Source: Myxococcota bacterium
GTDB taxonomy: Bacteria; Myxococcota; XYA12-FULL-58-9; JABJBS01
Direction of reading: 5' to 3'
DNA: 20,569 bases
NCBI GenBank assembly: GCA_036339465.1
Contig: JAYZAY010000082.1
Span: 1-20,569, forward strand
The notes below the pieces were generated by a model. That model worked only from the letters and a program-made list of their open reading frames with translations, was not told where the DNA came from and made no database searches. Made by a program: the position numbers and the translations under genes. Every line of letters starts with the position of its first letter. Within the stretch, counting starts at the first letter, position 1. Below are positions 1,804 through 20,066 of this stretch, one piece after another.

Positions 1804-1830
1804 GCAACTAGGAGCGCCACCCGACGATAA
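1804..1830 (+). promoter_or_regulatory. Sigma-28-like promoter motif GCAAC-N14-GACGATAA
   Basis: The -10 element is one mismatch from the FliA consensus GCCGATAA. The same architecture and spacing occur upstream of the PLD gene (13134-13160). Confidence 0.55.
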
Positions 1831-1871
1831 TGCCATTGAACGTTGTTAACCACTTTGAAGGGCACCACCCC

Positions 1872-2900
1872 ATGCCAAGCATCAACTCTACTCCCCTTAA
1901 AGCAACCCAACCCTCCCCAACAACGCCCCCAGAACAAACAACCACTCCGGAGACGTCCTCTGCCTCGCAGCTTCATGGGGATATATTCGGCGCTATCATG
2001 AGCAACCTCTCGCCCAATGACCGAGCAACCTCACGGGGCGTCAGCGCTCAATGGAATCGGTGGCTTAATGAGGGACTCGGAGTTGCACATCAGGTCAAAA
2101 TCCCCAGTCTGCCAAGAAAAGACCTCCGGAAATTTTTCAGCTCCGCGGAGGTGAAACACGCCCGCACCATCGATGCCAGAAACTACCGACGCTTCGTCCT
2201 CACAGACGCCGACCTTGACTACTTGGCCCCCAGTGGGAAGGTAAAGGCCATCGACTTGCGAATGCACATGCACCTTGGCAGTAAGGCCCTTGAAATCCTG
2301 TCGACCCGATTTCCAAACCTGGAATACCTCTCCCTCCACGGCTGTGACCCGGTGGTCCTCTCAGGGCTGCCCACCCTTGGAGAGAACTCGAAGAACCTGA
2401 AACGAATCGCCCTCTCTCACCGAGGCGGCGTGGGCTGCACACCCATCAACGCGTTCCTGAGCCATAGCGGTGGGCAGCTCGAGTCCCTTTGCATCTATTG
2501 GGGCGGTCTCTGGTTGGAAGGAAAGCCTGCGCCGCGGTCCTGCTACCTACGCAACTGGCCACCCCGCGATGCCCTTTCCGGAGTTGTAGCGGCATCGTGC
2601 CCGGGGCTTAAACGCCTCGCCCTTCCCGGGCACCACAACCTAACCGACCACCAACTAGATCAGATCATCAAGGGATGTCCGGAGTTGACAACCCTCCATC
2701 TGTGCGTTGAGAAGCTCAGCCCCGAGTATGTAGACCAGCTCCTTGAGAGCTGCCCCACGCTCAATTTTCTTTTTCACCACACCCCATTTTCCTACACCAA
2801 AAGGAAGGCTGAATGGAGTGCCCTCGAAAACAAATACGCCAGGATGGTGTGCCAACAATCGTTCGAGTCGTGGCGCAACGACGAACTCGCCCGCTCGTAA
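1872..2900 (+). CDS. Eukaryote-like F-box + leucine-rich repeat (FBXL/AMN1-like) protein
   Basis: F-box-like LHGDIFGAIMSNLSPNDRATSRGVSAQWNRW. LRRs such as FPNLEYLSLHGC and CPGLKRLALPGHHNLTDHQLDQIIKGCPELTTLHL. Pro/Thr/Ser-rich N-terminus. Start 1872 is preferred over 1830 because GAAGGG lies upstream and ATG 1830 overlaps the putative -10 box. Confidence 0.8.
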   Translation: MPSINSTPLKATQPSPTTPPEQTTTPETSSASQLHGDIFGAIMSNLSPNDRATSRGVSAQWNRWLNEGLGVAHQVKIPSLPRKDLRKFFSSAEVKHARTIDARNYRRFVLTDADLDYLAPSGKVKAIDLRMHMHLGSKALEILSTRFPNLEYLSLHGCDPVVLSGLPTLGENSKNLKRIALSHRGGVGCTPINAFLSHSGGQLESLCIYWGGLWLEGKPAPRSCYLRNWPPRDALSGVVAASCPGLKRLALPGHHNLTDHQLDQIIKGCPELTTLHLCVEKLSPEYVDQLLESCPTLNFLFHHTPFSYTKRKAEWSALENKYARMVCQQSFESWRNDELARS

Positions 2901-3323
2901 CACAAACGCTTCCTAGAAACTTCCCCTGCCCAAGTAACAAAGCCCCCAAATCTCTCGATCCAGGGGTCTTTTCTTATCAAAATCGCCCCGGACGGAGCAC
3001 GGCCGAAATTCCAAATCCCTTCAGTAATGGCGTTGTGTTGGCATTTTTCTATTAAGGCACTGGCGGCGCAAAACTCAGCGATAACCCTGCCACAATAGGA
3101 GCATGAGATACCACCAAGCGATGCTACTCACGCCGGTTCCAGCACCGATACAACCGCCGCCCTCCCCCCCATTCACACCGACTTCTGTGCCCATATAAAC
3201 ACCCACCCGTCCTCTGTTCCCTAGCCCCAAAAGGCCGGAAAAGTTTATTCCCCCTCCCCAATGGACTATTCTCTAGGTGATTTTAATGGGCAATTCAGAC
3301 GGCGGCGGAGAAACCAAATAACC

Positions 3324-4373
3324 ATGTGCCTTCTCAAGGGAAAAGCAATTGCCCAAGGTTTTTTCTGCTTCACCGCATTGCTCCTCCCTCTCGGGCCCGC
3401 TCTGGCCCAAGAAAACCCATCCGCCCTGGCTGACAGCACCCCTCAGCCAAAAAAAGAGGCCAAGAAAAAGTCAAAACAAACCCTCCCCCACATTCAACAG
3501 GTGGCCGCCACCACTGCCGCCAAACCTAAATCGGAGTTTGAAACAAAACTCGCCGCCGACGTGCTCAAGAAATTCCAAGCCGCCAAGGTCCTTTTCGACG
3601 ATATGGAATTCGATGAAGCCCTCCCCCTCATTGACGCGCTCCTTTTGAAACCCCAAGCCGAGGTGAACGTGGTCACCCGCATCGATCTCTACTATATGAA
3701 AGGCTGCTCCTTGGCCATTATGGGACAGCAATTTGAAGCCGAGAAGCCCTTTCGATTTCTTTTGAGCCTACAACGGGATTTCGACGTCCCTCCCACCCTC
3801 TCGCCCAAAATCGTCCAGGTCTTCAAAAAGGTAAAAGCCGAAATCGAGGCGGTCCATGTTCAAATGCTCCAACTCGAGAGACTACGCACCATTCGCGAGA
3901 TGGAAATCGTAGGAAAACTCCCCAAGACTCTTCGAGGGGGCTTGCCAATCGAATTCCAATACACGGTGCAAGATCCAAAAAAGGCGGTGGATAAGGTCTT
4001 GATCCACTACAAGCGAAATCACGAAGAGGCCTTTTCGTCCCTGGCTCTGAGCAACAAGAGTAAGGAAAACTGGTCGGGACAGCTTCCAGGGGCATGGACC
4101 TCCAACGAAGACGGCTTCAGGTTTGATTATTATGTCCAAACGAAAAGCAACCGACTGGGTTCACTGCTGGGCCGGGGTGATGAGATCAAACCACTTAACA
4201 TAAACATTCAGCCGGGAAAATTCATCAAGGTTGAGATTTTACCTTGGTACAAACAACCATGGTTTTGGTGGACCACCGCCATTGCCGCCACCGCCATTGG
4301 AGGACTCAGTTATTGGGGATACAGCGAAGCCACCAGCACCACCGTCAGCGAAGGGGGCGATATCGCCTTTTAA
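3324..4373 (+). CDS. Exported TPR-like protein with a beta-rich domain and C-terminal membrane anchor
   Basis: Signal-peptide-like FFCFTALLLPLGPALA|QE. TPR-like helices (AKVLFDDMEFDEALPLI, LYYMKGCSLAIMGQQFEAEKPF) and the motif PPTLSPKIVQVF. C-terminal PWYKQPWFWW plus a hydrophobic Gly/Ala segment, typical of myxobacterial TPR/PEGA proteins. The ORF is open from 3261; 3324 is the inferred start. Confidence 0.75.
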   Translation: MCLLKGKAIAQGFFCFTALLLPLGPALAQENPSALADSTPQPKKEAKKKSKQTLPHIQQVAATTAAKPKSEFETKLAADVLKKFQAAKVLFDDMEFDEALPLIDALLLKPQAEVNVVTRIDLYYMKGCSLAIMGQQFEAEKPFRFLLSLQRDFDVPPTLSPKIVQVFKKVKAEIEAVHVQMLQLERLRTIREMEIVGKLPKTLRGGLPIEFQYTVQDPKKAVDKVLIHYKRNHEEAFSSLALSNKSKENWSGQLPGAWTSNEDGFRFDYYVQTKSNRLGSLLGRGDEIKPLNINIQPGKFIKVEILPWYKQPWFWWTTAIAATAIGGLSYWGYSEATSTTVSEGGDIAF

Positions 4374-4382
4374 TTGGAACAC

Positions 4383-6584
4383 ATGAGCACCATTGACAAA
4401 GAATATCTCGTATTTGGCAAATACGCCTGTATCCGCCGCCTTGCCGTGGGCGGTATGGGAGAGATTTTCCTGGCACAACAACACGACGACATTGGCATCG
4501 ACCGCCTAGTGATCATCAAAAGCCTCTTGCCGGAACTCGCCCGTGATCCAAACTTCACCCAACAGTTTCTAGATGAAGCCCGGGTCGCCTCCCACCTCAA
4601 TCATCCCAATATCGTATCGATCTACGACGTGGGGCTCTGGCGAAGCCTTTACTTCATTGCTATGGAGTATATCCAGGGCATCACCCTAGCCCAGCTCATG
4701 AGAAATATCATCGGCAACCAGCAACGGGTTCCATATAGCCTCAGTGCCAAAGTGGTCATGGACGCATGTATCGCCCTGGGACACGTAAGAGATGCCACCG
4801 ATAGCCAAGGGCAAGCCCTCAATATCGTCCACCGCGACATCAGCCCCCAAAACATCATGATTCGACAAGATGGGGTCACCAAACTCCTGGACTTCGGCAT
4901 CGCCAAGGCCGACAACAAGCAACACCACACCCAAACCGGCCTTCTCAAGGGGAAATACTGCTATATGTCCCCGGAACAAGCATTGGGAAAAAAAATCGAC
5001 TGGCGCACGGATCAATTCGCCCTGGGTATCGTCCTTTGGGAGCTACTCACCCACGAACGCTACGTCTCAGCAACCCTGGGTCAAGAGGCAATACTGAAAC
5101 GAATTACCCAAAGTGAAATACCGAGCGCATGTGAACTTCGCCCCGACATCCCATCCGCCCTCGACGACATCATTGGCCAGATGTGTCAACGGGATCCCGA
5201 GAAAAGGTTCTCAAGTTGGGACGCAATCCTGGAGGCCTTCGAGCAATATCGTTCCTCCTCAGAAAACCGCATGGAAGATCGGCACGTCGCCACCTACCTC
5301 AATGCGAATATCGCCTCGGATATCGCAGACCAAACCCTAGACCGAACCCCTCGGGCTCGCGAAATTCTCGCCACCATCCTCCCTGTCCACGAGTTGAGTA
5401 ACCCAATTATCGATCCGAAAGCCCCTGGCCCAAGATCCAATGAGAGCGGGGATGACGTCACCGAGCAAGATCTAGAAGAAGAGGAACTCACAGGAATTCA
5501 ACCGCCTCTTCCCCAAAGAGAAGAAGCTGAGATCTTCGAAGAAATCAATGCCTTGGGTCGAATGCCCACCGCCAAAATCCCCAAGCCAAACCGCGCAAGT
5601 CACCACCGCCATCATCATGACGGCGTTCACCCCCAAAAACCTTCCAAACTGCCATGGGTGGTGGCCACCTTGGCCCTTCTAATACTCCTTGCCAGTCTGG
5701 CCATTCAAATTCCGACCGTTAAAGATACACTTCCTCCCACCGTGTTGGGCCCGATTCAAAAGATTCATGAAGTCTACGTCAACAAAATCCAGCCTCTTTT
5801 CAGTGGAGCAAAAAACAAAACGGCCCCGAATACGAATCAACTTACCTCCATCGAAATCCCAATCCCAGCCGGCGCCACAGTCTTCGTGGACACCATTAAG
5901 TGGAAGGAACTTGTCCCCACCACCATCACCGGACTCAAACCCGGCCGACATAAAATTCGCCTAGAACTCCCGGGACATGACCCCATCGTTCGCATCATGG
6001 AGCTGCTCCCTAACCAACCCATACAACTGCGCGAAGAAGCCAAGCCCATCGGTGCCGATCTCGTTTTGCGCTCCATTCCAAAAGGCGCTCGGGTATTCAA
6101 GGGCAGTCGTATTTTAGGAATCACCCCCGTAAGTATTGGAAACCTCCCCTCGGGAGTCGAGCACCTTTTCACCCTCACACACAAAGGCTTTGCCACCCAG
6201 AAATTGGCCATCACCCTAGCCCCCAAGGAAAAAGCAACGAGGGTGATAACCCTTGCCAAGACCAACCGTAAAACCAAAACAAAGAACGCAACAAACAAAA
6301 ACAAGTCCCCTAATATCTCACAGGCCCTAGCCCCAGCACCACCCTCCCCACTGAAGAAAAGCGTAGAATCCAAGGAACCGGGCTTCCTAACTCTGAAAAC
6401 CGAGCCATGGGTGCAAGTGGAGATCGATGGGGAAAAAGTTGGGGTCACCCCCCTTTGGAAGCACCCATTAAAACCGGGAGCACACACCCTTCGGCTCTAC
6501 AATGAAGAAGCCGGGGTCAATACCACCCGCAAGATACAAATCGGGTCCGACAAAATCACCAAGCTGAAATGGAAACTTGAATAG
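4383..6584 (+). CDS. Membrane-bound Hanks-type Ser/Thr protein kinase with extracytoplasmic PEGA-like domains
   Basis: LAVGGMGEIF, VIIK, FLDEAR, HRDISPQN, LLDFGIAK, GKYCYMSPEQ and DQFALG motifs. TM helix LPWVVATLALLILLASLAIQI. About three PEGA-like units (PAGATVFVD..LKPGRHKIRL; SIPKGARVF..LGITPV; TEPWVQVEIDG..VGVTPL). Alternative TTG start at 4374. Confidence 0.95.
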   Translation: MSTIDKEYLVFGKYACIRRLAVGGMGEIFLAQQHDDIGIDRLVIIKSLLPELARDPNFTQQFLDEARVASHLNHPNIVSIYDVGLWRSLYFIAMEYIQGITLAQLMRNIIGNQQRVPYSLSAKVVMDACIALGHVRDATDSQGQALNIVHRDISPQNIMIRQDGVTKLLDFGIAKADNKQHHTQTGLLKGKYCYMSPEQALGKKIDWRTDQFALGIVLWELLTHERYVSATLGQEAILKRITQSEIPSACELRPDIPSALDDIIGQMCQRDPEKRFSSWDAILEAFEQYRSSSENRMEDRHVATYLNANIASDIADQTLDRTPRAREILATILPVHELSNPIIDPKAPGPRSNESGDDVTEQDLEEEELTGIQPPLPQREEAEIFEEINALGRMPTAKIPKPNRASHHRHHHDGVHPQKPSKLPWVVATLALLILLASLAIQIPTVKDTLPPTVLGPIQKIHEVYVNKIQPLFSGAKNKTAPNTNQLTSIEIPIPAGATVFVDTIKWKELVPTTITGLKPGRHKIRLELPGHDPIVRIMELLPNQPIQLREEAKPIGADLVLRSIPKGARVFKGSRILGITPVSIGNLPSGVEHLFTLTHKGFATQKLAITLAPKEKATRVITLAKTNRKTKTKNATNKNKSPNISQALAPAPPSPLKKSVESKEPGFLTLKTEPWVQVEIDGEKVGVTPLWKHPLKPGAHTLRLYNEEAGVNTTRKIQIGSDKITKLKWKLE

Positions 6585-6623
6585 AACCATGAGCCTGCGT
6601 TTATCTGCCACAAGGACTGAGCC

Positions 6624-9600
6624 ATGAGGCAAGCCCGCCTTTGCTCACAACCCATCCTCATAGGCATTACCCTCGCCCTTGGCCTGGGGCTTTCAGCCTG
6701 TGAGGCTCCCAGCCATTTCGTTCTCAAAGTGGCCATCCCGGAGGCCCCAGCAGAGGCAAGCCCCGATGACCCGATGACCCGATGGCTAACCAAGATCCAA
6801 GAAACCAACCTTATCCGCATTTCTCTCCATACACCGGGCAATGCCCCAGCCAGAGGGGGCCAAACCATCGAAAAAATCCCCGCCACCGGCAGTGTCTTTT
6901 TCCAGAAACCCGCAAGCTCGACCTCATTCACAATATTGCCCGGCACCCAATGCCAGAAGGCCTGTGATTTTCGTATCGAAGCCCTTCTCGACGACCAGAT
7001 CTTGGCAGAGACCTTCATATTCCTCGATTTCGAAGACCAAAATGAGAGAATTAGTTCCGTGGGTTCGGCCAATGCCACCCTTCTGCCCCACTGCGCGACC
7101 ATTGGCACCATCGCAGGGAAAACCGACGAGGAGGTAAGCCTACTTGAACCCATCTGTTTGCGTTCGGACCGTAGCCAAAACCAGGTCGGCTACAACACCG
7201 GCACCTGCCGAATCTCCGGGGGAGAAGCGGGCCTCGAATGTCTCCCCTCCTGTGGCGACGGGATGGTGGAGACCTCCGAAAATCCCGCCACACAAAAGCC
7301 CTATGAGGAATGCGACCCGGGCGCCGGCGGTGAAACTAGATTCTGTGACGCAGACTGTAGCGCAGTCGTCTGTGGGGATGGTTACGTCAACCGGCAAAAC
7401 GAAGACTGTGACCCCGGCGAAAGCGGGGAAAGCATCGACTGCGACTCCGACTGCAGTATTCGACAATGTGGGGATGGTGTCGTCAATGCCAGCGCCGGAG
7501 AACAATGCGACCCCGGCCCCGACGAGAGCGGCAATCCCCAACATACCGCCCATTGCGACGACGACTGCTCCCTCGTGGTGTGTGGCGATGGGATCTTCAA
7601 CCCTCTGGCAGAAAGCTGCGATGATGGAAACGAAGACAAAACCGATAGCTGTATCGGTTGCAAACCAGCGAGATGTGGTGACGGCCACGTTTGGAAGCAA
7701 CAAGAGGTATGCGATCTTGGAAAAAGTGAAAACGGGCAGATTCAATTTGACTCAAGCTGCGACATCGACTGCACTACCCCCATCTGTGGCGACGGGTTGA
7801 TCAATAGTGAAGCGGGGGAACAGTGCGAAATTGGTATCTCAGGAAGCACGGCCCTAGATTGCTATGGGTGTAGAATCGATCAGTGCGGCAATGAAATCAT
7901 CAACCCCGCTAGTGAACAATGCGAGATCGGTGAAGCTATTCCCGGAAGCCAGGAAATAGCCACCCAAGCCAGTTGTTTCCAATGCAAACTATCCACCTGC
8001 GGCGATGGAGAAATAAATCCCCATGCCGGAGAAACCTGTGAGGTGGGTATCAACGGCGCAACCAGTGCCCAGTGCTTAAACTGCACCCCTTCCACCTGTG
8101 GAGATGGCCGAATCAATGCCGACGCCAACGAAACCTGTGAAGTGGGAGTGGGCAATGCAACCACCGCCAATTGCCTAGACTGCACCCCCTCCACCTGCGG
8201 GGACGCAAGGATTAACCCCGTCAACGAAGCCTGCGAAATAGGCATAGGCAACGATAACGCGGCTACCTGCCTAAATTGTAGCGCCTCCACCTGTGGAGAT
8301 GGGCGAATCAATCCCGATGGGGGCGAAACCTGTGAAGTGGGAGTGGGCAATGCAACCACCGCCAATTGCCTAGACTGCACCCCCTCCACTTGTGGCGACA
8401 AACGCATCAATGCCGCGGCCGGAGAGGTTTGTGACGACGGTAATAAGAGCAACAATGACGATTGTCGAAACGACTGTCTGGCAAATATTTGCTCCGACGG
8501 CTTCCACAATCAATCGGAGCTCTCCACAGAGGAGTGCGACGATGGCAACAACAATGCCAACGATTTTTGCCACCAATGTCGCAACGTGACCTGGAGCACC
8601 CTGCTTCGTTCTGGAACCTTGGGCCCCGGTTTGGGCATTACCGACGCCTCTACAGGCATGGATTCCATCTCCACCAGCGACGAGGAGGTCTCAAGCCTCG
8701 GGTACGACACCGAAGACAATCTCTATGTCGCCAGTAAAAGTATCACCGGTATCGCCAAGCAATTGGGCGCAATGGATCCAGGAACCGGGCACTTGGTCCG
8801 AGTCACCGGCAAGAATGCCGAGAACTATCTGTGCAGGAACTGGTCAGGACAACCCACCGAAGCATCGACCATGCAGCTCTGTGGGCCCACCGATTTCGTT
8901 TTTGATAGCTACGGAAATCTCTTCTTCTTCGAACTACAAACCGACAAACAATATATTCTAAAGCTCGGCAGCGGTGGCATGGTTCAACGTCTCGCGACCC
9001 CCTACGATAAAGATTGCAGAAACAAATACACCGCCGACAATAGCGCTTTCAATCAACCGGTGAACCACCAGGCCATCTCAAATATGGACATTGGTAAGAA
9101 CTTAACCTCGGACCCCAATGGCACCCTTTACTATCTCGGCGGCGATGAACTACTCTGCTATGACGAAGGCGACAACGTAGAAGACGGCTACCAAAATCCC
9201 AACGATCATGGCTCTGACACCGACGACCGTGCAGAGCTGGTAGCAACCACCCAGGGACGACGCATTTGGCGTTTGGCCACCAGCCCCTTAGAACAGCCCA
9301 TAAGCGTCAACGACGTGACCAATAAACTAGATTTTCGCTACGGGATCCCCAACAATTCATTGGAAGCGAACCTTCGGGTTTCCTTAGCCCATCAATGTTA
9401 TTCCGACACCCAATCTCCCGCCCCCTACACCCAAGCAGTGGGCGGATTGACCACTGATACCAACGGTTATCTTTACTGGTTCACCGAGAATCAAATCTAT
9501 CGTTCCAAAGTGGAAATGGTGGTAAAATCAGCAACAGGCCAGAACCCTTCGAATTATTTCTGCATCGACCCAAAACGATTGACCAGCGCCAATTCGAGTG

Positions 9601-12245
9601 CCGCGGCGGCCAATACCTGCAGCATCACCGTGGGCGCTGCAGCCTCAGACATCATCTTCACTCCATTGTCCATTCTGGATTTGGCCTCAGACGGTGAAGC
9701 AAGACTCCATGTCGCCCATAAATGCATGCACAACAATACAGAACAGCACGGCGTTCTCACTCTGAAACAAGATTCCGAAAACGTTTGGAAAGTGGAACGC
9801 ATCGACCGACCCATCCAGGTGACCGACCCCTCGGCATCCCTAGGCGCCCCCAATCCCGAAATCCAACCGCTTCAGCTCGCAGGTAAGAAATCGGGTTGGG
9901 GCACCATTGCTTCGGGACAACTCATTGTTGAAGGTGGCACCACAGCCCCGCCCCACGTCGTGATGGGCACATCACAAAACGAGGATTGTGTGGTCACCGG
10001 TCGTGGGTCCAAGAAACGAAACCTCCAGTACACCGGCCTAGCCACAGACAATTCCGGAAACATTTTCTTTACCTCCACCCTCGACCTCGGTTCAGAAACC
10101 AAGCATGGATTAACAGTCATACGTCACAGCGACGGCATGGAGAGGACCATCGCGCTCGGTGATTCCGTGCCAAAACCCAATGCCTTGGCCTTTGATAGCC
10201 AAGGTGACCTGTTTATCCACGACCAAGAAAACCACAAAATAGTCAAAATTCCCCTTAGCACTGCCCCACATGGATGGGAAACCAACTGCGACGCCAACCT
10301 TCCATCCCTAGAACTTATACTCGAAGAAACTCCTGAGGATGATGGCAGCGAACACGGTCCCAAAATGGCATTCGACAGCCAGGATCGGCTCTATTTCCAA
10401 ACCAGTACCTCGCTCTCCTACTTGGCTGCAGATCCCCAACAGGGCGTACCCCTCTCTTTGATATCCCTACTGACGGGACACTTTTCGGGATTCGAAATCG
10501 CCACCGACACCGAGATTTATGTCGCCGACGACACCAATTCGGTGGTCCGAAAACTCACCCTTGACCATGGCGGTAACCTCGTCAACGACACCATTGTCGC
10601 CGGTAGTACCGGGCAAAACTGCGACCTTAACAGCCAAGGGGAAACCGCTAGCTGCGGGGACGGCGCTAGCGGCACAAGCGCCACCTTTCCCGCCGACAGT
10701 CCACGTGACGTCCTATGGATGGACAACAAACTCTACGTCGGTAGTGCGGCAATTGTGTCGAGTATGTCGGGCTCCTCCGATAAGTCCTGGGTGGGCAATC
10801 TTCGGCTCCTAAGCCCCGATGGTAACGGGAGCTTTGACGTTTCCACCCCCGCATCCCCATCTTGGGTGGGTTATGGATCGCAGACCAAACCCAATGGGGA
10901 TGGTTACACTCCAGACCAACTAGACTCCCGCCCCACCCGATTCGTGAAAATCCCCCCTTCCTCACCCTCCCCATACGCCATGCTCTGGCTGGAAAGCAGT
11001 GTGAGCCGTGGTCACTCGATCCGAGCCCTTGAGCGCGTGAGCGGTACTGTCCAAACCCTCAACGGCATGCACTTAGGCCCGAGCAATGATGGCCCGAGCC
11101 CGCAGGGTAAACTCAATACCCCCGTGGGCATGACCCTCATCCAATCCCCCCAAAGCGGTGAAGCCATTTGGTGGGTGACCGACCATTCCCAAAACCGTGT
11201 GCGCTCCTTTAAGTGGAATGTGAGTAAAAACACCAGCATCATCAATACGGAGGTAGGGTTCCAAAAAGAGTCCTCCTCCTTTGCCACCAGCGATGACCCC
11301 CACTACTCGGTCCCGACCATCCTCTATGGAGACTCAAGCAGCACCAATCCGCCACAGGCGTTACCAGCTCGACTCCTCGGCAATCCCTACGGGATCTTCT
11401 ACGCCTCAAACCGACACGAGATCTACATCACCGAGACCGACCGAAACCTAAGCCTAAGTCCTACAGACCCTAGCTGGTACTCTCCCACCATGACCTTTGG
11501 TCCCCTCATTAGCTGTATCGACACCAGCGGTTCCCAATGGACCCTTCACCCCTTCGCGGGCAAAGGAGAGTTGGTAAACACCTACACCAACGGCACCGCG
11601 CAAGAGGTGCAATTCAGCGACCCCACCGGTATCTTGGTGCACAACAACCACCTTTACGTCACCGACCGAAGCAACCACATCATTCGGCGAATCGCTCTCC
11701 ATGCCACCAAGACCTGTGCCCCTGAAATCGATGCGCAATTTGAAACCATCGCGGGCATACCCGCTCAACCGGCCTTCGCACAAGACAACGGTGCCCAGGC
11801 CACCGAGTCCAATCTAAATCACCCCGACTCCATAGTGATCAGCCCCATAGATGGAAGCATTTTCGTCGCTGACACGGGCAATCACCGCGTTCGCCGGATC
11901 AGCGATGACGGCACCATTGTTACGATTTTAGGATTGGGCATCGAGAGCAACACCGGCGACGGAACCCCCGCCACCGATTTCCCCGTCAACACGCCACGAG
12001 GAATGGCGATGGACACCCACGGCAATCTCTACGTCGCCGCCAAGGATACCATCCGCCAGGTCATCGCCCACAATGACGGCACCATCGATGGCACCAATTC
12101 CGTGCACACCATCCACGGCAAGTACCCATTGACCTTTCCCGAAACCAGCACCCGATGCCTCACTGCGGTGGCCATGGAGTCTCCGAGCTCGCTCCAAGCA
12201 GTGGATAGCTGCAACGGCTTCTGGATCTCCATCGACCGACAGTAA
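6624..12245 (+). CDS. Giant lipoprotein with myxobacterial Cys-rich (DUF4215-like) repeats and NHL beta-propeller repeats
   Basis: Lipobox LGLSA-C26. Thirteen CGDG-type repeats (ExCDDGN/ETCEVG). NHL repeats include FSDPTGILVHNNHLYVTDRSNHIIRRI and LNHPDSIVISPIDGSIFVADTGNHRVRRI. AAGGA RBS upstream. Confidence 0.88.
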   Translation: MRQARLCSQPILIGITLALGLGLSACEAPSHFVLKVAIPEAPAEASPDDPMTRWLTKIQETNLIRISLHTPGNAPARGGQTIEKIPATGSVFFQKPASSTSFTILPGTQCQKACDFRIEALLDDQILAETFIFLDFEDQNERISSVGSANATLLPHCATIGTIAGKTDEEVSLLEPICLRSDRSQNQVGYNTGTCRISGGEAGLECLPSCGDGMVETSENPATQKPYEECDPGAGGETRFCDADCSAVVCGDGYVNRQNEDCDPGESGESIDCDSDCSIRQCGDGVVNASAGEQCDPGPDESGNPQHTAHCDDDCSLVVCGDGIFNPLAESCDDGNEDKTDSCIGCKPARCGDGHVWKQQEVCDLGKSENGQIQFDSSCDIDCTTPICGDGLINSEAGEQCEIGISGSTALDCYGCRIDQCGNEIINPASEQCEIGEAIPGSQEIATQASCFQCKLSTCGDGEINPHAGETCEVGINGATSAQCLNCTPSTCGDGRINADANETCEVGVGNATTANCLDCTPSTCGDARINPVNEACEIGIGNDNAATCLNCSASTCGDGRINPDGGETCEVGVGNATTANCLDCTPSTCGDKRINAAAGEVCDDGNKSNNDDCRNDCLANICSDGFHNQSELSTEECDDGNNNANDFCHQCRNVTWSTLLRSGTLGPGLGITDASTGMDSISTSDEEVSSLGYDTEDNLYVASKSITGIAKQLGAMDPGTGHLVRVTGKNAENYLCRNWSGQPTEASTMQLCGPTDFVFDSYGNLFFFELQTDKQYILKLGSGGMVQRLATPYDKDCRNKYTADNSAFNQPVNHQAISNMDIGKNLTSDPNGTLYYLGGDELLCYDEGDNVEDGYQNPNDHGSDTDDRAELVATTQGRRIWRLATSPLEQPISVNDVTNKLDFRYGIPNNSLEANLRVSLAHQCYSDTQSPAPYTQAVGGLTTDTNGYLYWFTENQIYRSKVEMVVKSATGQNPSNYFCIDPKRLTSANSSAAAANTCSITVGAAASDIIFTPLSILDLASDGEARLHVAHKCMHNNTEQHGVLTLKQDSENVWKVERIDRPIQVTDPSASLGAPNPEIQPLQLAGKKSGWGTIASGQLIVEGGTTAPPHVVMGTSQNEDCVVTGRGSKKRNLQYTGLATDNSGNIFFTSTLDLGSETKHGLTVIRHSDGMERTIALGDSVPKPNALAFDSQGDLFIHDQENHKIVKIPLSTAPHGWETNCDANLPSLELILEETPEDDGSEHGPKMAFDSQDRLYFQTSTSLSYLAADPQQGVPLSLISLLTGHFSGFEIATDTEIYVADDTNSVVRKLTLDHGGNLVNDTIVAGSTGQNCDLNSQGETASCGDGASGTSATFPADSPRDVLWMDNKLYVGSAAIVSSMSGSSDKSWVGNLRLLSPDGNGSFDVSTPASPSWVGYGSQTKPNGDGYTPDQLDSRPTRFVKIPPSSPSPYAMLWLESSVSRGHSIRALERVSGTVQTLNGMHLGPSNDGPSPQGKLNTPVGMTLIQSPQSGEAIWWVTDHSQNRVRSFKWNVSKNTSIINTEVGFQKESSSFATSDDPHYSVPTILYGDSSSTNPPQALPARLLGNPYGIFYASNRHEIYITETDRNLSLSPTDPSWYSPTMTFGPLISCIDTSGSQWTLHPFAGKGELVNTYTNGTAQEVQFSDPTGILVHNNHLYVTDRSNHIIRRIALHATKTCAPEIDAQFETIAGIPAQPAFAQDNGAQATESNLNHPDSIVISPIDGSIFVADTGNHRVRRISDDGTIVTILGLGIESNTGDGTPATDFPVNTPRGMAMDTHGNLYVAAKDTIRQVIAHNDGTIDGTNSVHTIHGKYPLTFPETSTRCLTAVAMESPSSLQAVDSCNGFWISIDRQ
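7251..8579 (+). repeat. Intragenic array of 13 Cys-rich repeats, with a 66-bp exact duplication at 8129-8194 / 8324-8389
   Basis: Repeat starts: CGDGMV, CGDGYV, CGDGVV, CGDGIF, CGDGHV, CGDGLI, CGNEII, CGDGEI, CGDGRI, CGDARI, CGDGRI, CGDKRI, CSDGFH. The identical DNA copies are 195 nt apart. Confidence 0.9.
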
Positions 12246-12402
12246 GCCCACACAGACGCAAGCCTAGAAAAGAGCACCTCCAATTTAAATCCGAGGCAAC
12301 ATGGATAATCCACGCCCGTTCCCTTGCAAATAATTCGAATAAACTCAACGCCTTGAAAACGAGGGGATGATGCCAAACAGATACCAGGTTACCATTGATT
12401 TC

Positions 12403-12431
12403 TTGAAATGCCCTCCGTTTTAACTTAGCTT
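12403..12431 (+). promoter_or_regulatory. Candidate sigma-70 promoter of the ABM gene
   Basis: TTGAAA-N17-TAGCTT. Confidence 0.35.
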
Positions 12432-12500
12432 CCCACGTGGTTGTCGGTCCCTGTATGGAGGCCGTTTCTATTTTTGAAACAAGTCAAAGAGGAGTTAGAT

Positions 12501-12812
12501 ATGTCGTGTGCAGTCGTGGCTGAATTTGTTTTTCAAGAGGGGAAAATTGCTGAAGGATTGGCGCTCTTGGAATCTCCGGCCGGTCTAGAGGCCACAAGGG
12601 ACTACAAAGGATGCAATCAAGTGGATTTGGCATTGGATACTGAAAACCCCAACAAGGTCGTTCTCACTGAATTTTGGGATTCCAAAGACGACCATCTTGC
12701 CTATTTCCAATGGAGACAAGAAGGCGATGAGAGCGGAGCGCTAGAAAAGCTTGGAGCAATTATGGCTGCCGAACCCAAATTTACGTGGGCTAATATCAAA
12801 AAGACCTACTAG
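12501..12812 (+). CDS. Antibiotic biosynthesis monooxygenase (ABM/YgiN-like) family protein
   Basis: About 103 aa with ATRDYKGC...ENPNKVVLTEFWDSKDDHLAYFQWR, a typical ABM pattern. Strong AGGAG RBS before ATG 12501. Confidence 0.85.
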   Translation: MSCAVVAEFVFQEGKIAEGLALLESPAGLEATRDYKGCNQVDLALDTENPNKVVLTEFWDSKDDHLAYFQWRQEGDESGALEKLGAIMAAEPKFTWANIKKTY

Positions 12813-13133
12813 TCAAAATCAAAGAGATTTTTGAGCCGCACTTAAGAAATACCTCCCGCAGGGATGGTGGTGCATGTTCTGCACGAGACGTCGTTGTTTT
12901 TTGCGCCTCCTTAGGCTCTTTGTGCCTAGAAAATTCAAACCCCAATTTAGCTTCGACGCAACCTTTGGCGAGTTTCCCTCCCAATTTTGCCTCCTTTGGA
13001 TTTTGCTGCTTTCGAAAACCACAAGTTTTGGTAGCCGTGTATTGGGCCCAAGGCTTGGGTGCAGAAACAAAGGCCGGTTAGATCTAAACCCATTTAGCGG
13101 GCATCTTTTCCCTGCCCTTCAGTACAAATCCAC

Positions 13134-13160
13134 GCAACGCGACAATTTTGGCGCCGATAA
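13134..13160 (+). promoter_or_regulatory. Sigma-28-like promoter motif GCAAC-N14-GCCGATAA
   Basis: Perfect FliA-type -10 (GCCGATAA, 13153-13160), with GCAAC at the same spacing as upstream of the F-box gene. Confidence 0.6.
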
Positions 13161-13226
13161 AGGAGAGCCCAACGAAAAAAAGACCATGACCCCTTGAGTC
13201 TGGGGTCTGGCGAGAGGAAATAGATT

Positions 13227-14804
13227 ATGCCAGCCATACCAAACCCAACCCGCCCTACACTTCAGCCCACCCGCCCATCCGAGCCCAACGCGCCGGCAAC
13301 GCCTCAAACACGCACCACGTCTAACACCAACTCGGGTGATTGGTTTGAGAATGCCATGTTTGGTGCCCTTGACAACCTCCTGTGGGGATTAAATGCAACA
13401 GGCCTGGCACAGCCTGTGGCTAACCTCACCCTCAAAGTGGCCGCAAGTGGTAACAAGCCAAACTGGTATGCCGGGACCTCTGAGCATGCAGCGATGATCT
13501 TAGCTGCAGAATACGACGAACGAGACACCCGAAAGAGCTTTGCTGAACGTAGCCGTGAATACCTCTCTGAAGCCAGGGTTAGAACATTGACTGGAATGCC
13601 ACTCCGCGGCGGAACCGCTTTTGAGAATGAAGGATTTATCAAAGATCTCGAAAAAGCAGGCAACGCAAAATTCACAGCGGGCAACACGGTTGAGTTTCTC
13701 ATCGATGGTCCCCAGTCTTTTGCAAAGCGCAATGAGCTCATTGATAACGCAACCGATAGTATTCATCTTCTGACGTGGAGCATCTACGACGATGCGACCG
13801 GAGAGGACCTCTGTAAGCGGCTGGTGAAAAAATCCAAAGAAGGTGTGGATGTAAAAGTCATCATCGATCGCAATATTGCCCGCCAGCGTAACAACAAAAA
13901 GACCTCCGACTATTTGATAGCCAATGGTATTAAAGTCATTTTCTGGGAAGACCCAGACAACATTCAATACGGCAACCACTGCAAGGTGATGATCGTCGAT
14001 GGCACCAAAGCTGTTGCCGGCGGCATGAACCCAGGCAACTACTACAGCCACGCCACCAATCTAGACCCTACCTACGATGGGCCTAAATGGCGCGACACGG
14101 ATATATTCGTGAGCGGTGTAGGTGGTGTCGACCAAGAAGCTCTGTTTGTGAGCTACTGGAATAGCCAGATTGAGAAACACAACCTTCCGTTTGCGCCTAT
14201 GGAAATGGATCGTGATGCACTTATAGCCAAAGCCGATACCTCAGGCACCAGCCGGGTCGCTGTGGTTGAGCATAAGCCAGACGACGAAACCTTTGATGTT
14301 CTGAGCACGATGTTGAAAGCATTATCGGGCGCGACCACAAGCGTTGATATCGAGAACGCCTACTTTCTCACTCTGCCCGGTATGGACCAGCTCCTCTATG
14401 CTGCCCTCGCACGCGGGGTGAAGGTTCGTATCTTCACCAACTCCGACAAAAGTGTGGATGAGCCGCTGGTGAGTGAGCCCATCATGAAAGCGCTTCCAGA
14501 CTTAATGAAAGCAGGCGCCGAGATTTACATCAAGAAGGGTGACACCCTTCACAGCAAGTTCATGGTTGTCGATGACGCGTTCGTCTCATTGGGCAGTCTC
14601 AACCTCCATCCTCGCTCACTCTACTACGATACAGAAATGGCCGTGAACGTCATTGACAAAAACGCCGCCAAAGCGCTTCGTGAACAGTTTGACCGTGATA
14701 TCGAAGAGGAGGAGGCACTTGCAATCAAGACCGCCAAAGACCTCGAGATAGACTCACAGTGGTACAACCGATTTATCGCTAAGTACTTTTCCCGTCACCT
14801 TTGA
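13227..14804 (+). CDS. Phospholipase D superfamily protein (cardiolipin-synthase-like, two HKD motifs)
   Basis: HCKVMIVDGTKAVAGGMN and HSKFMVVDDAFVSLGSLN, plus WRDTD and IENAYF. No N-terminal TM helices; Pro/Thr-rich N-terminus. GAGAGG RBS. Confidence 0.92.
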   Translation: MPAIPNPTRPTLQPTRPSEPNAPATPQTRTTSNTNSGDWFENAMFGALDNLLWGLNATGLAQPVANLTLKVAASGNKPNWYAGTSEHAAMILAAEYDERDTRKSFAERSREYLSEARVRTLTGMPLRGGTAFENEGFIKDLEKAGNAKFTAGNTVEFLIDGPQSFAKRNELIDNATDSIHLLTWSIYDDATGEDLCKRLVKKSKEGVDVKVIIDRNIARQRNNKKTSDYLIANGIKVIFWEDPDNIQYGNHCKVMIVDGTKAVAGGMNPGNYYSHATNLDPTYDGPKWRDTDIFVSGVGGVDQEALFVSYWNSQIEKHNLPFAPMEMDRDALIAKADTSGTSRVAVVEHKPDDETFDVLSTMLKALSGATTSVDIENAYFLTLPGMDQLLYAALARGVKVRIFTNSDKSVDEPLVSEPIMKALPDLMKAGAEIYIKKGDTLHSKFMVVDDAFVSLGSLNLHPRSLYYDTEMAVNVIDKNAAKALREQFDRDIEEEEALAIKTAKDLEIDSQWYNRFIAKYFSRHL

Positions 14805-18206: not shown

Positions 18207-20066
18207 TTGACACGTTTATGTGTATGGCTCATTGAAGACGACAAGCGTTGTATTCAAAATGTTGAATCTTGGTGTCAAGAATACGGGGCAGACCTTGTCT
18301 TGTTTAAGCATCCTGCCGACCTCTTTGGTGTTCTGGAAGACAGCTTTCAGGTGCACGACCTAGTTTTGATGGACTCTGATCCCGTAATTCATTCTGCCGA
18401 TGAGCTATGCCGATCCATCATTGATTCGGGGGAAACGGACAAGACCCTCATTTTTACTATGTGCGATACCTACAATGCCAATATTCGGGAAATGGGACGA
18501 TTGATGGGCACGGACGGATGGCTGTTGCGCCCCCTTAATAAGCAAAGCGTGCTTCAATTGTTTGAGGTGACTCAATCGGATATCAATCTTCGATTCTCGG
18601 AGCGAAAGGACGCATTGTTCGATATCAAGATGGGGAAACTCAGCATAGGATATGATGGGAAGAATATCCTGTGCTCTGGCACGATGGATGAGAATTCAAA
18701 TTTCGAGCGCGTGTTGAGCCTTCTTCCTGACGACACAGCTAACAACATCGGTATTGATTGGTCTGGGTTGCGGAACATCAATATTCAAGGGATGCTAGCT
18801 TGGCGGGACTTCGTCGAAAACTTTGATATGGCTCGACATACATTTATGTTTTTTCGATGTCCCATTATTATGCTTGAATATTATCGGTTGATGCCGGAAC
18901 TTTTTGGAGACAATGTTGAGATTGCTTCCGTACATCTCGTGGTTAGTTCCCATATCGAATCAGAATGCATTGGGGCGCTTATGGAAACGAACCAGCAGCG
19001 CTCTACGAAAGGTTCGTACCTGTCAATCCGCCCACAAACTCGAGAATTGGCTTTTGGTGATTATTTGGATTGCTTTCTCGATTTGCACAAACCTCCCGCT
19101 ACTACACACAATATGTTTTTTGAGTATCTGTTATTCTTGCATATCAATATCCGGCACACTCTATCAGAATTTTTTCTAACGCGGCATACCATTCTCGAGC
19201 AGGTCACCCAGATGGCGGCAAGATTTTCGAGTTTTGATAGGGCGGTCCGATTCTTAGGCGCGGAATGTCAATCAAAACCCGCAACCCGAGAGGAAATGAT
19301 TGACTGTGTCACTTCGGTCTACGAGCCCATTTTCTTCAACCTACTTGCCGCAGAGCGGGTTCTAAACTGCCTACAGTTCAAGATTAACCCAGATGAAAAT
19401 TGTGAATGTACGCGGCGAATGTTGACCGATCTTCTCTTTGAGTTTTCCGGGTCTGGCTTTGGGCAGGCGAGATTCTCCCTGAAAGTAAATAAAGTTGCAA
19501 AACTTGAAGCGGCATATGACCGCTCCCAGTCTCAAGCTGATCTCGATAATCTCGTGATGGCTGTTTATCGGGCGGTGTCTCAAATCATTGGGCGTCTGAC
19601 CGGCGTCATTAACGAGATTGGCGCGCACGTGATGAAGCTATTAGCAAGCTATTCAGAAGTGGAGCCCTTTGTGTTTGCAGCTGCTTCAGCATTGGAAGAG
19701 TCGGTTGGCAAAGTGGAGCCGGCGACACTGTATCAGTTTATTCATCACTCGTTGCAATGTTGGGATGGTACCGCGATGGATATGGCTAACGCGATCGACA
19801 CCGCCATGACAACGTGCTTAGACTACGAAGTCGAGATGATTCGAATTATGCACTCACTGAGCTCCCATGATGAACTGACTCAGGTTTTGGAACACCGGAT
19901 GGTCGAACTGGAACGGATTTGTGAAGGTGCAGACCGTCAAGAAATTATGGATAGAATTCGAGATAGAGCCGTAACGATTCTAGAAAAGAAAATCGTGTCC
20001 TTTGTCTTTCAAGAGTTTAAGGATGCCTTTGATGATTCTACTTCAACAGAAATGGAGCTCTTCTAA
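18207..20066 (+). CDS. Atypical response-regulator receiver + STAS-like domain + long helical C-terminal domain (putative signalling protein)
   Basis: Receiver: WLIEDD, DLVLMD, MGTDGWLLRP. STAS-like: CSGTMDE...IDWSGLRNINIQGMLAWRDFV. Helical C-terminal part ending in EMELF. TTG start with AAAGGCGGG upstream. Confidence 0.75.
   Translation: MTRLCVWLIEDDKRCIQNVESWCQEYGADLVLFKHPADLFGVLEDSFQVHDLVLMDSDPVIHSADELCRSIIDSGETDKTLIFTMCDTYNANIREMGRLMGTDGWLLRPLNKQSVLQLFEVTQSDINLRFSERKDALFDIKMGKLSIGYDGKNILCSGTMDENSNFERVLSLLPDDTANNIGIDWSGLRNINIQGMLAWRDFVENFDMARHTFMFFRCPIIMLEYYRLMPELFGDNVEIASVHLVVSSHIESECIGALMETNQQRSTKGSYLSIRPQTRELAFGDYLDCFLDLHKPPATTHNMFFEYLLFLHINIRHTLSEFFLTRHTILEQVTQMAARFSSFDRAVRFLGAECQSKPATREEMIDCVTSVYEPIFFNLLAAERVLNCLQFKINPDENCECTRRMLTDLLFEFSGSGFGQARFSLKVNKVAKLEAAYDRSQSQADLDNLVMAVYRAVSQIIGRLTGVINEIGAHVMKLLASYSEVEPFVFAAASALEESVGKVEPATLYQFIHHSLQCWDGTAMDMANAIDTAMTTCLDYEVEMIRIMHSLSSHDELTQVLEHRMVELERICEGADRQEIMDRIRDRAVTILEKKIVSFVFQEFKDAFDDSTSTEMELF

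Follow-up and report, generated by a model that had tools for sequence, protein, structure and literature searches.

The 20,569-nt stretch of DNA analysed here (the window) belongs to a 4.17-Mb, 93% complete assembly, G000, from an uncultured Myxococcota order; the sequencing runs related to it are seawater metagenomes. Two of its genes, one for an F-box/leucine-rich-repeat (LRR) protein and the other for a member of the phospholipase D (PLD) superfamily, are preceded by a bipartite promoter-like motif that joins an unusual -35-like box, GCAAC, to a -10-like box of the sigma-28 type (Table 1). Here we follow this motif across the genome and its relatives, and argue that it is probably the promoter of a sigma-28 paralogue encoded in a cluster of type III secretion system (T3SS) genes.

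Two promoter-like sites and the genes behind them

The whole sites extend over 1804-1830 and 13134-13160 on the + strand, with a 14-nt spacer in both, and end 41 nt before the ATG at 1872 and 66 nt before the ATG at 13227, two unrelated genes sharing one motif exactly as originally noted. They are the only 2 matches of the exact pattern (GCAAC, 14-nt spacer, GnCGATAA) in the window; 100 dinucleotide shuffles gave 0. The -10 sequence of the sigma-28 class, GCCGATAA, is present, while the -35 sequence TAAA(G) is not found and GCAAC stands in the same register instead. Scans for sigma-70 promoters and terminators around both genes returned nothing on the + strand. Another ATG, further upstream at 1830, falls partly within the -10 box of the first site; the homologue P0122 begins at the equivalent of 1872.

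Table 1. Boxes, genes and segments of interest in the window
Feature	Position	Strand	Remarks
-35-like box GCAAC, candidate promoter of the F-box/LRR gene	1804..1808	+	24.8 bits, genome-trained matrix
-10-like box GACGATAA, sigma-28 type	1823..1830	+	14 nt past the -35-like box
Orphan F-box/LRR gene, 342 aa	1872..2900	+	Pfam LRR matches and weak F-box
Candidate signal for type III export: Ser/Thr/Pro-rich first 30 codons	1875..1964	+	Ser+Thr+Pro fraction 0.67
F-box-like segment, residues 37-65	1980..2066	+	PF00646, E 0.04; 14.3 bits, below the cut-off of 20.5
-35-like box GCAAC, candidate promoter of the PLD gene	13134..13138	+	25.0 bits
-10-like box GCCGATAA, perfect sigma-28 type	13153..13160	+	
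PLD superfamily gene, 525 aa	13227..14804	+	PLDc_2, E 1e-39
Candidate signal for type III export: Pro/Thr/Ser-rich first 30 codons	13230..13319	+	Ser+Thr+Pro fraction 0.57

The 342-aa protein is a candidate eukaryote-targeting effector. Its assignment as an F-box protein is soft because the Pfam match lies below the cut-off and the structure model is weak (pLDDT 58); the top Foldseek match of that model is Skp2 (E 9e-5), and the nearest Atlas clusters are F-box/LRR at 0.95 and, where taxa are recorded, eukaryotic. Only two homologues were found, and none in 21 genomes of the same order; P0122 retains a similar Ser/Thr/Pro-rich N-terminus. The PLD, one of four encoded behind the motif in G000, has two HKD motifs (13977-14000 and 14550-14573, residues 251 and 442), and the source label of its homologues is cardiolipin synthase. 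The cardiolipin synthase ClsA has an N-terminal membrane anchor; the window protein has neither such an anchor nor a signal peptide, the maximal 11-residue hydropathy in its first 40 residues being -0.52. The N-termini of its close homologues are still low-complexity and differ in sequence. With a G+C content of 0.57 and 0.51, respectively, the F-box/LRR and PLD genes are not distinct from their neighbours.

Low-complexity Pro/Thr/Gln/Ser N-termini lacking a Sec signal had been noted in both proteins, and this was borne out. Neither N-terminus contains a hydrophobic stretch, and their Ser+Thr+Pro fractions exceed those of all (F-box/LRR, the highest among all genes scored) or all but 0.07% (PLD) of 2832 other genes. 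The MP(S/A)I start noted as a further common feature is present in the window pair, but it is not a shared code, because Pro occupies position 2 in just 6 of the 33 motif genes defined below. A literal reading of MP(S/A)I as an export code was therefore rejected; composition is the common trait of the motif genes.

The motif and its gene set in the genome

When spacers of 10-19 nt were compared over the whole assembly, the exact pattern matched 8 times with the 14-nt spacer and 0-2 times with each of the other lengths. A relaxed pattern, GCAAC-Nn-NNCGA[TA], picked after a first genome-wide look at the motif, gave 48 intergenic matches at n=14 versus 5, 13, 20, 10 and 7 at n=12, 13, 15, 16 and 17, while matches in coding DNA stayed flat (59-72 over spacings). 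A scoring matrix trained on 34 intergenic sites of G000 identified, at 16 bits or more, 39 intergenic sites at spacer 14 and 12 at spacer 15, with 1 and 5 at spacers 13 and 16, a count that is partly circular because the matrix was seeded on intergenic sites. The intergenic excess at spacer 14, set against the flat coding matches, agrees with the predicted bias toward upstream regions. The -10 box alone, tried as a search pattern, returned 120 intergenic sites and no clear logo; the signal sits in the -35 box. The motif is thus real and far wider than the window. The pattern was defined after both window sites had been seen, and two chance matches might have been suspected; replication outside the window, in the genome-wide counts and in the cross-genome counts given below, reduces the probability of this to next to nothing. 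Back-to-back divergent pairs of the motif occur as well, one in G000 (L069; G000:C24:47979 on the - strand and 48038 on the + strand) and one at G007:C1:180481-180579.

Among 2865 genes delineated by a simple in-house gene caller, 33 have a site of at least 15 bits within 200 nt upstream (motif genes), the median distance from motif to start being 41 nt. Their N-termini (residues 2-31) were compared with those of 1601 first-in-operon genes. The Ser+Thr+Pro fraction is 0.33 in the motif genes versus 0.18 in the controls (p 3e-11); fractions of at least 0.3 are found in 23/33 versus 139/1601, and a hydrophobic signal-like stretch in 1/33 versus 441/1601. The motif genes thus display the N-terminal character of type III effectors, namely low-complexity Ser/Thr/Pro sequence and no signal peptide. 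A Pfam scan of 52 proteins, which took in 41 open reading frames (ORFs) behind strong or weak sites, recognized among these ORFs another three PLDs, one phosphatidate phosphatase and a further F-box-like protein; Fic, ankyrin and deaminase domains and a C92 peptidase were also recognized, along with numerous orphans. An ADP-ribosyltransferase-like protein is encoded behind a strong site; weak sites head the genes for a U-box fragment and a caleosin-like protein. Together with the 33-gene statistics, these assignments uphold the expectation that genes downstream of the motif are enriched in signal-less Pro/Thr/Ser-rich N-termini and in effector-like domains.

One motif gene, L059:88-1032 (-) (G000:C2:3037-3981), encodes a protein faintly reminiscent of mitochondrial carriers (Pfam E 0.71), which is a lead only. 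Two orphans are very large: L250:177-8186 (-) (G000:C1:76873-84885) specifies 2670 aa and L048:290-6493 (+) 2068 aa, the latter sitting behind a top-scoring site.

A sigma-28 paralogue within a T3SS cluster

The original prediction called for a divergent FliA-like sigma factor and an export apparatus in the same genome, and both were found. The sole FliA-like gene of the assembly (G000:C64:38204-38956) encodes a sigma factor whose best match among 67 families is TIGR02479 (FliA/WhiG; 161 bits, below the cut-off of 189.6), and is flanked by a gene for a TPR chaperone, a class represented in the cluster, and by sctI-J-L-N-O-Q-R-S-T-U. SctR (215.2 versus a cut-off of 208.6) and SctS pass their profiles, SctS passing the FliQ profile too; SctN, SctU, SctT, SctJ and SctQ score best as Sct families, under cut-off; and SctV, alone on contig C59, passes with 835.6 versus 692.25. 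A non-flagellar export apparatus and ATPase complex of the Sct type is therefore present. A conserved 157-aa orphan (L015:2727-3197, +) always lies directly upstream of the sigma gene and is a candidate regulator or anti-sigma factor; a PDB search with it gave no match.

In an alignment, the region 4.2 helix reads SKSW(T/V/A)SR in the T3SS-cluster orthologues (SKSWTSR in the C64 protein) versus ESRV/ESRA in flagellar FliA (ESRVCQ at the aligned place). Region 2, which is responsible for -10 recognition, retains R-I/V-R/K/Q-G-A/S-x-x-D-x-x-R in both clades. A tree splits the KSW-type from the flagellar-type sigmas by a 100/100 branch, with bootstrap not fully converged and a midpoint root; the KSW type falls on one side together with proteins named from Myxococcus. 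We infer from these comparisons that the helix change explains the GCAAC -35 box.

Flagellar genes coexist with this cluster in G000, on contigs C100 (L017, NCBIfam) and C18 (L084, from reading the translations), and include flgM; flagellin-like genes are also scattered at G000:C11:149791-174107 and G000:C16:21822-22556, beside the Myxo-type T3SS. In the 93% complete assembly flhA, fliPQR, flhB and flagellar fliA were not found; kin have flhA, fliPQR and fliA. These genomes often contain two FliA-like genes, a 55-81% identical orthologue of the C64 sigma (in 19/21 genomes of the order) and one of ~30% identity, which lies beside flhA where checked. One could therefore envision that flagellar FliA, its gene being missing from the assembly, reads the motif through the -10 box that it is known by, and that the products leave via the flagellar export apparatus. 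However, two flagellin genes of G000 have TAAAG-N14-GTCGA upstream, in the same register as the GCAAC motif, and flgM has the TAAAG form too, by eye; GCAAC is found before neither flagellin gene. Moreover, G006, G012 and G017 have 33, 11 and 51 sites with one sigma and one SctV each and neither a second FliA nor FlhA found, whereas G024, with a flagellar-type sigma and FlhA-like matches only, has 2 sites versus 1 at the control spacing. We regard flagellar FliA as a very improbable reader of the motif.

Across relatives (31 genomes), 695 matches to GCAAC-N16-CGATAA were counted, versus 63 for the N19 control spacing. G022, G024, G026 and G027, which do not have a full SctV orthologue, have 1-3 sites each. 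The motif also precedes 6/8 homologous PLD loci in other genomes; locus L130 was excluded from this comparison because its gene ends at the contig edge. In the 41 genomes of the Myxococcus-related G029 family there are 229 matches versus 12 at the control spacing. All 34 of 34 sigma-bearing genomes of this family have sites (220 in total), the seven without the sigma have 0, 0, 0, 0, 1, 3 and 5, and all four site-free genomes are among those without it. Proteins named from Myxococcus, Pyxidicoccus and Corallococcus share 85-93% identity with the G029 sigma, and the T3SS cluster of G029 is syntenic with C64 and contains sctV. In G058, start codons follow 12-18/21 sites under two rules, as opposed to 1-2/25 wrong-spacing controls, and the N-terminal bias holds (Ser+Thr+Pro 0.29-0.34).

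Recognition of the motif by the T3SS-cluster paralogue is thus well supported by the position of its gene, its altered helix and the co-occurrence of sigma and sites. A different transcription factor might bind the motif, with the sigma link reflecting no more than shared ancestry with the T3SS; kin are not independent, and the exceptions to co-occurrence listed below (G008, G002, G028 and G054) would suit such a factor. The motif, on the other hand, is oriented and non-palindromic, has a fixed promoter-like spacing and a sigma-28 -10 box, and stands in register with the TAAAG promoters of flagellin genes, while the sigma has its -35 helix altered and region 2 kept. On balance this second reader appears even a shade less probable than flagellar FliA. 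The original prediction is accordingly supported in attributing the regulon to a divergent FliA-like factor, which would be the T3SS-cluster paralogue and not flagellar FliA; of the export routes that it had listed, a non-flagellar T3SS is the likely one, rather than the flagellum or a Tad system. No Tad/Kil partner was recognized, the three strong T2SSE ATPases being PilB/PilT-like by their neighbours and by reading.

Apparatus, cargo and relation to known systems

Several genes of the T3SS itself appear to belong to the regulon in relatives. A site of at least 11 bits precedes the needle-like gene in 9/12 T3SS loci and one of at least 9.9 bits precedes sctI in 9/20; the sigma gene has one in 1/18. 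Because sctI stands first among the apparatus genes, control by the sigma may extend from late cargo to the entire machine. The designation "needle-like" is only a lead because no Pfam or PDB sequence test was passed: the protein, its alignments and the 73-aa protein described next had no match in PDB sequence searches. The C64:36653 family reaches E 0.043 against PF09392 in G029, and 73-aa proteins of G029, whose Atlas neighbours include T3SS_needle_F (PF09392) in 13-32% of members, score 28-29 bits against a profile of its C-terminus. Three tandem, near-identical 73-aa genes of this kind lie in the G029 T3SS cluster (L137:9900-11029 (-), G029:C57), two of them directly behind the motif. A structure model of the needle-like protein, with a single long helix at the C-terminus, is of poor quality (pLDDT 57). 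Modelling of its C-terminal 55 residues with the neighbouring TPR protein gave a score of 0.92 (best of 3 controls, 0.01), with contact agreement of at least 96% and a partner pLDDT of at least 77, a mark reached by 116/157 solved pairs and 2/215 mismatched pairs; resemblance to needle-chaperone complexes of solved structure may account for this pass.

Two large proteins, L245:156-1712 (-) (G000:C1:68052-69611) and L246:180-1946 (-) (G000:C3:24776-26545), have common conserved segments, variable middles and a C-terminal tail that weakly resembles the needle-like family; the L245 product also contains DUF1521 (E 2e-11). No motif was found upstream of either gene. They are possible tip or filament proteins. 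Outside the main T3SS cluster, two orphan genes, with products of 227 and 767 aa, run convergently towards a gene for a SycD-like chaperone (L083:4449-7977; G000:C30:56448-59976). This locus was considered as a translocon and is unsupported, with no hydrophobic segments and no family.

How these elements might work together can be outlined as follows. The paralogue would keep the sigma-28 -10 box and read GCAAC in place of TAAAG, and this recognition would insulate the T3SS regulon from the flagellar one. It would switch on rod/needle-like subunits together with scattered cargo genes and would probably also drive the apparatus operon, through a promoter that some relatives have ahead of sctI, while disordered Ser/Thr/Pro-rich N-termini would route the cargo to the T3SS. 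Export of the motif-gene products by the machine of this cluster is likely. The predicted G000 cargo (lipid-modifying, F-box, U-box, ankyrin, Fic and ADP-ribosyltransferase-like proteins) would suit a eukaryotic target, for example a protist. That of Myxococcus-related genomes appears to include cell-wall hydrolases, which would suit bacterial prey: in 4/12 motif genes scanned in G058 a peptidoglycan-binding domain is combined with an amidase, VanY or NlpC/P60 domain, these hydrolases having no signal peptides, and 1/8 scanned in G029 encodes a LysM-transglycosylase. Taken together, we consider it probable that GCAAC-N14/15-NNCGATAA is the promoter of the T3SS-cluster sigma-28 paralogue and that the genes behind it, including the window pair, specify substrates of this T3SS.

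A number of observations weigh against this interpretation. Some genes behind the motif do not look effector-like, ordinary-looking products including a glutathione transferase, ExbD, OMPP1/FadL, a P450 and a DEAD helicase. The reverse test was marginal, a weak site preceding 4/57 Ser/Thr/Pro-rich genes outside the set versus 7/300 (p 0.057). The matrix was seeded on intergenic matches, start-codon rules differed between motif and control genes, and the related genomes are not independent. G054, G063 and G065 are without the sigma yet have 5, 1 and 3 sites; in G008 (20 sites) and G002 (8), which have SctV, no sigma orthologue was found; a KSW sigma without any site occurs in G028; and G010, an assembly 65% complete, has 0 sites, G015 having 4. 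In G007, which has 88 sites, 30 were examined and 12-15 of these had a start codon downstream, with a mean Ser+Thr+Pro of 0.24-0.25. The T3SS genes of G000 itself score poorly (needle-like gene -3.3 bits, sctI -3.3, sctV 0.9, DUF1521 gene -0.7), the top site inside the cluster reaching 11.3 bits, and no needle gene in it gave a Pfam pass. A translocon was not recognized in G000 by Pfam and hydrophobicity scans, SycD-like chaperones being present. No dedicated secretin SctC was found in the 93% complete assembly, the sole secretin being PilQ of a pilMNOPQ operon. This secretin (G000:C67:20449-25611, +) is 1720 aa long; secretin frames of the same size class in five relatives have 667-1386 codons, and relatives have 2-6 secretin matches each, of unassigned type.

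Several of these points would be accommodated if the T3SS-cluster sigma did read the motif and governed a broad programme of predation or host contact, most products of which were not type III substrates. Ordinary enzymes and envelope proteins among the motif genes, the lack of a dedicated secretin and the weaker N-terminal bias in G007 would then be natural, as would the signal-peptide-like start of one G058 motif gene. There is a precedent in Bdellovibrio, where, in the excerpted text of PMC3627812, FliA heads 92/140 attack-phase promoters, many of them non-flagellar, with the consensus TTAAG-N16-CCGATA. Against a broad programme stand the 32/33 motif genes that have no hydrophobic signal, though many encode enzymes with outside targets, the signal-less peptidoglycan hydrolases behind the motif in G058, and the fact that the most conserved sites precede T3SS rod/needle-like genes. 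We find this alternative unlikely, if clearly the most serious of those considered.

The reading that we favour, a T3SS regulon under its own sigma-28 paralogue, has parallels. HrpL of Pseudomonas syringae, with its hrp box, and BtrS of Bordetella are T3SS-encoded alternative sigmas whose box marks apparatus genes and scattered effectors, and is usable for finding effectors. The C64 factor is likewise an alternative sigma encoded with a T3SS; it differs in being FliA-derived, HrpL and BtrS being extracytoplasmic function (ECF) sigmas with other boxes. Its FliA descent fits that of the Myxococcota T3SS from the flagellum. With late flagellar promoters of FliA/sigma-28 and the Bdellovibrio regulon the motif shares the -10 box and the promoter geometry, and Bdellovibrio, a predator, similarly uses sigma-28, the FliA/WhiG type to which the C64 factor is closest, beyond flagellar genes. 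It departs from them in its GCAAC -35 box and in leaving flagellin genes outside the set, and the sigma is set apart from flagellar FliA as a second paralogue whose recognition helix differs and whose gene lies in a cluster for a non-flagellar T3SS.

The closest known machine is the T3SS* of M. xanthus (MXAN_2434-2464), which is the 'Myxo' non-flagellar T3SS of PMC3459982 (see also PMC10849154; both in excerpt). Excerpts of PMC10433427, PMC12075869 and PMC12428579 describe it as required for the lysis of prey, with peptidoglycan degraded locally, as needle-less and as having unknown effectors. According to the accessible parts of PMC11804543, the head of the cluster consists of MXAN_2434 (type III protein), 2435 (TPR), 2436 and 2437, a well-expressed gene in published RNA-seq that is annotated as a sigma-70 factor; MXAN_2457 is labelled an inner-rod family protein and MXAN_2458 bears a DUF1521 label. 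The gene order at the cluster head is the same as in C64, matched by order and label and not by sequence, and neither cluster contains a secretin. In G000, unlike M. xanthus, sctV lies by itself, flagellar genes are present alongside and a Tad ATPase was not recognized. The T3SS* descriptions, as far as their excerpts go, present no sigma regulon; what is proposed here are a promoter, needle-like subunits and candidate cargo. A word search for sigma in the available text of PMC3459982, PMC12075869, PMC10433427 and PMC12428579 found no mention, and a search of the supplement of PMC10196010 gave no result. We found no literature on a myxobacterial T3SS sigma regulon or needle, although subscription papers lay mostly outside the search and a prior mention is possible.

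It is tempting to speculate that the earliest non-flagellar T3SS, on parting from the flagellum, took along a copy of sigma-28 and re-coded its -35 box, so that the box now tags the myxobacterial T3SS secretome: overlooked needle-like subunits and signal-less cell-wall hydrolases acting as the missing T3SS* prey-lysis effectors in Myxococcus and its kin, eukaryote-directed effectors in the marine lineage. We put the chances of this wider scenario somewhat short of even. The motif is likely read by the T3SS-cluster sigma and would therefore point to the proteins that this T3SS exports, so that a promoter signature tracking the cluster sigma supplies a candidate list of T3SS* effectors, including in the model predator Myxococcus, where MXAN_2437 makes the effector question approachable through one gene. 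The uncultured order, with the sigma in 19/21 sampled genomes, many of them having dozens of sites, may use the same machine with very different cargo, and the findings suggest that the most basal injectisome inherited its sigma-28 control from the flagellum.

The remainder of the window holds other genes of note. A single run at 3261-12245 encodes an orphan helical protein, a PEGA-domain Ser/Thr kinase and a 1873-aa cysteine-rich/NHL-repeat protein. Further along, 18207-20066 encodes a 619-aa protein with no Pfam match and, by eye, a receiver-like start; the G+C content is low in this stretch (0.46) and in the adjacent hpaB-like gene (0.43).

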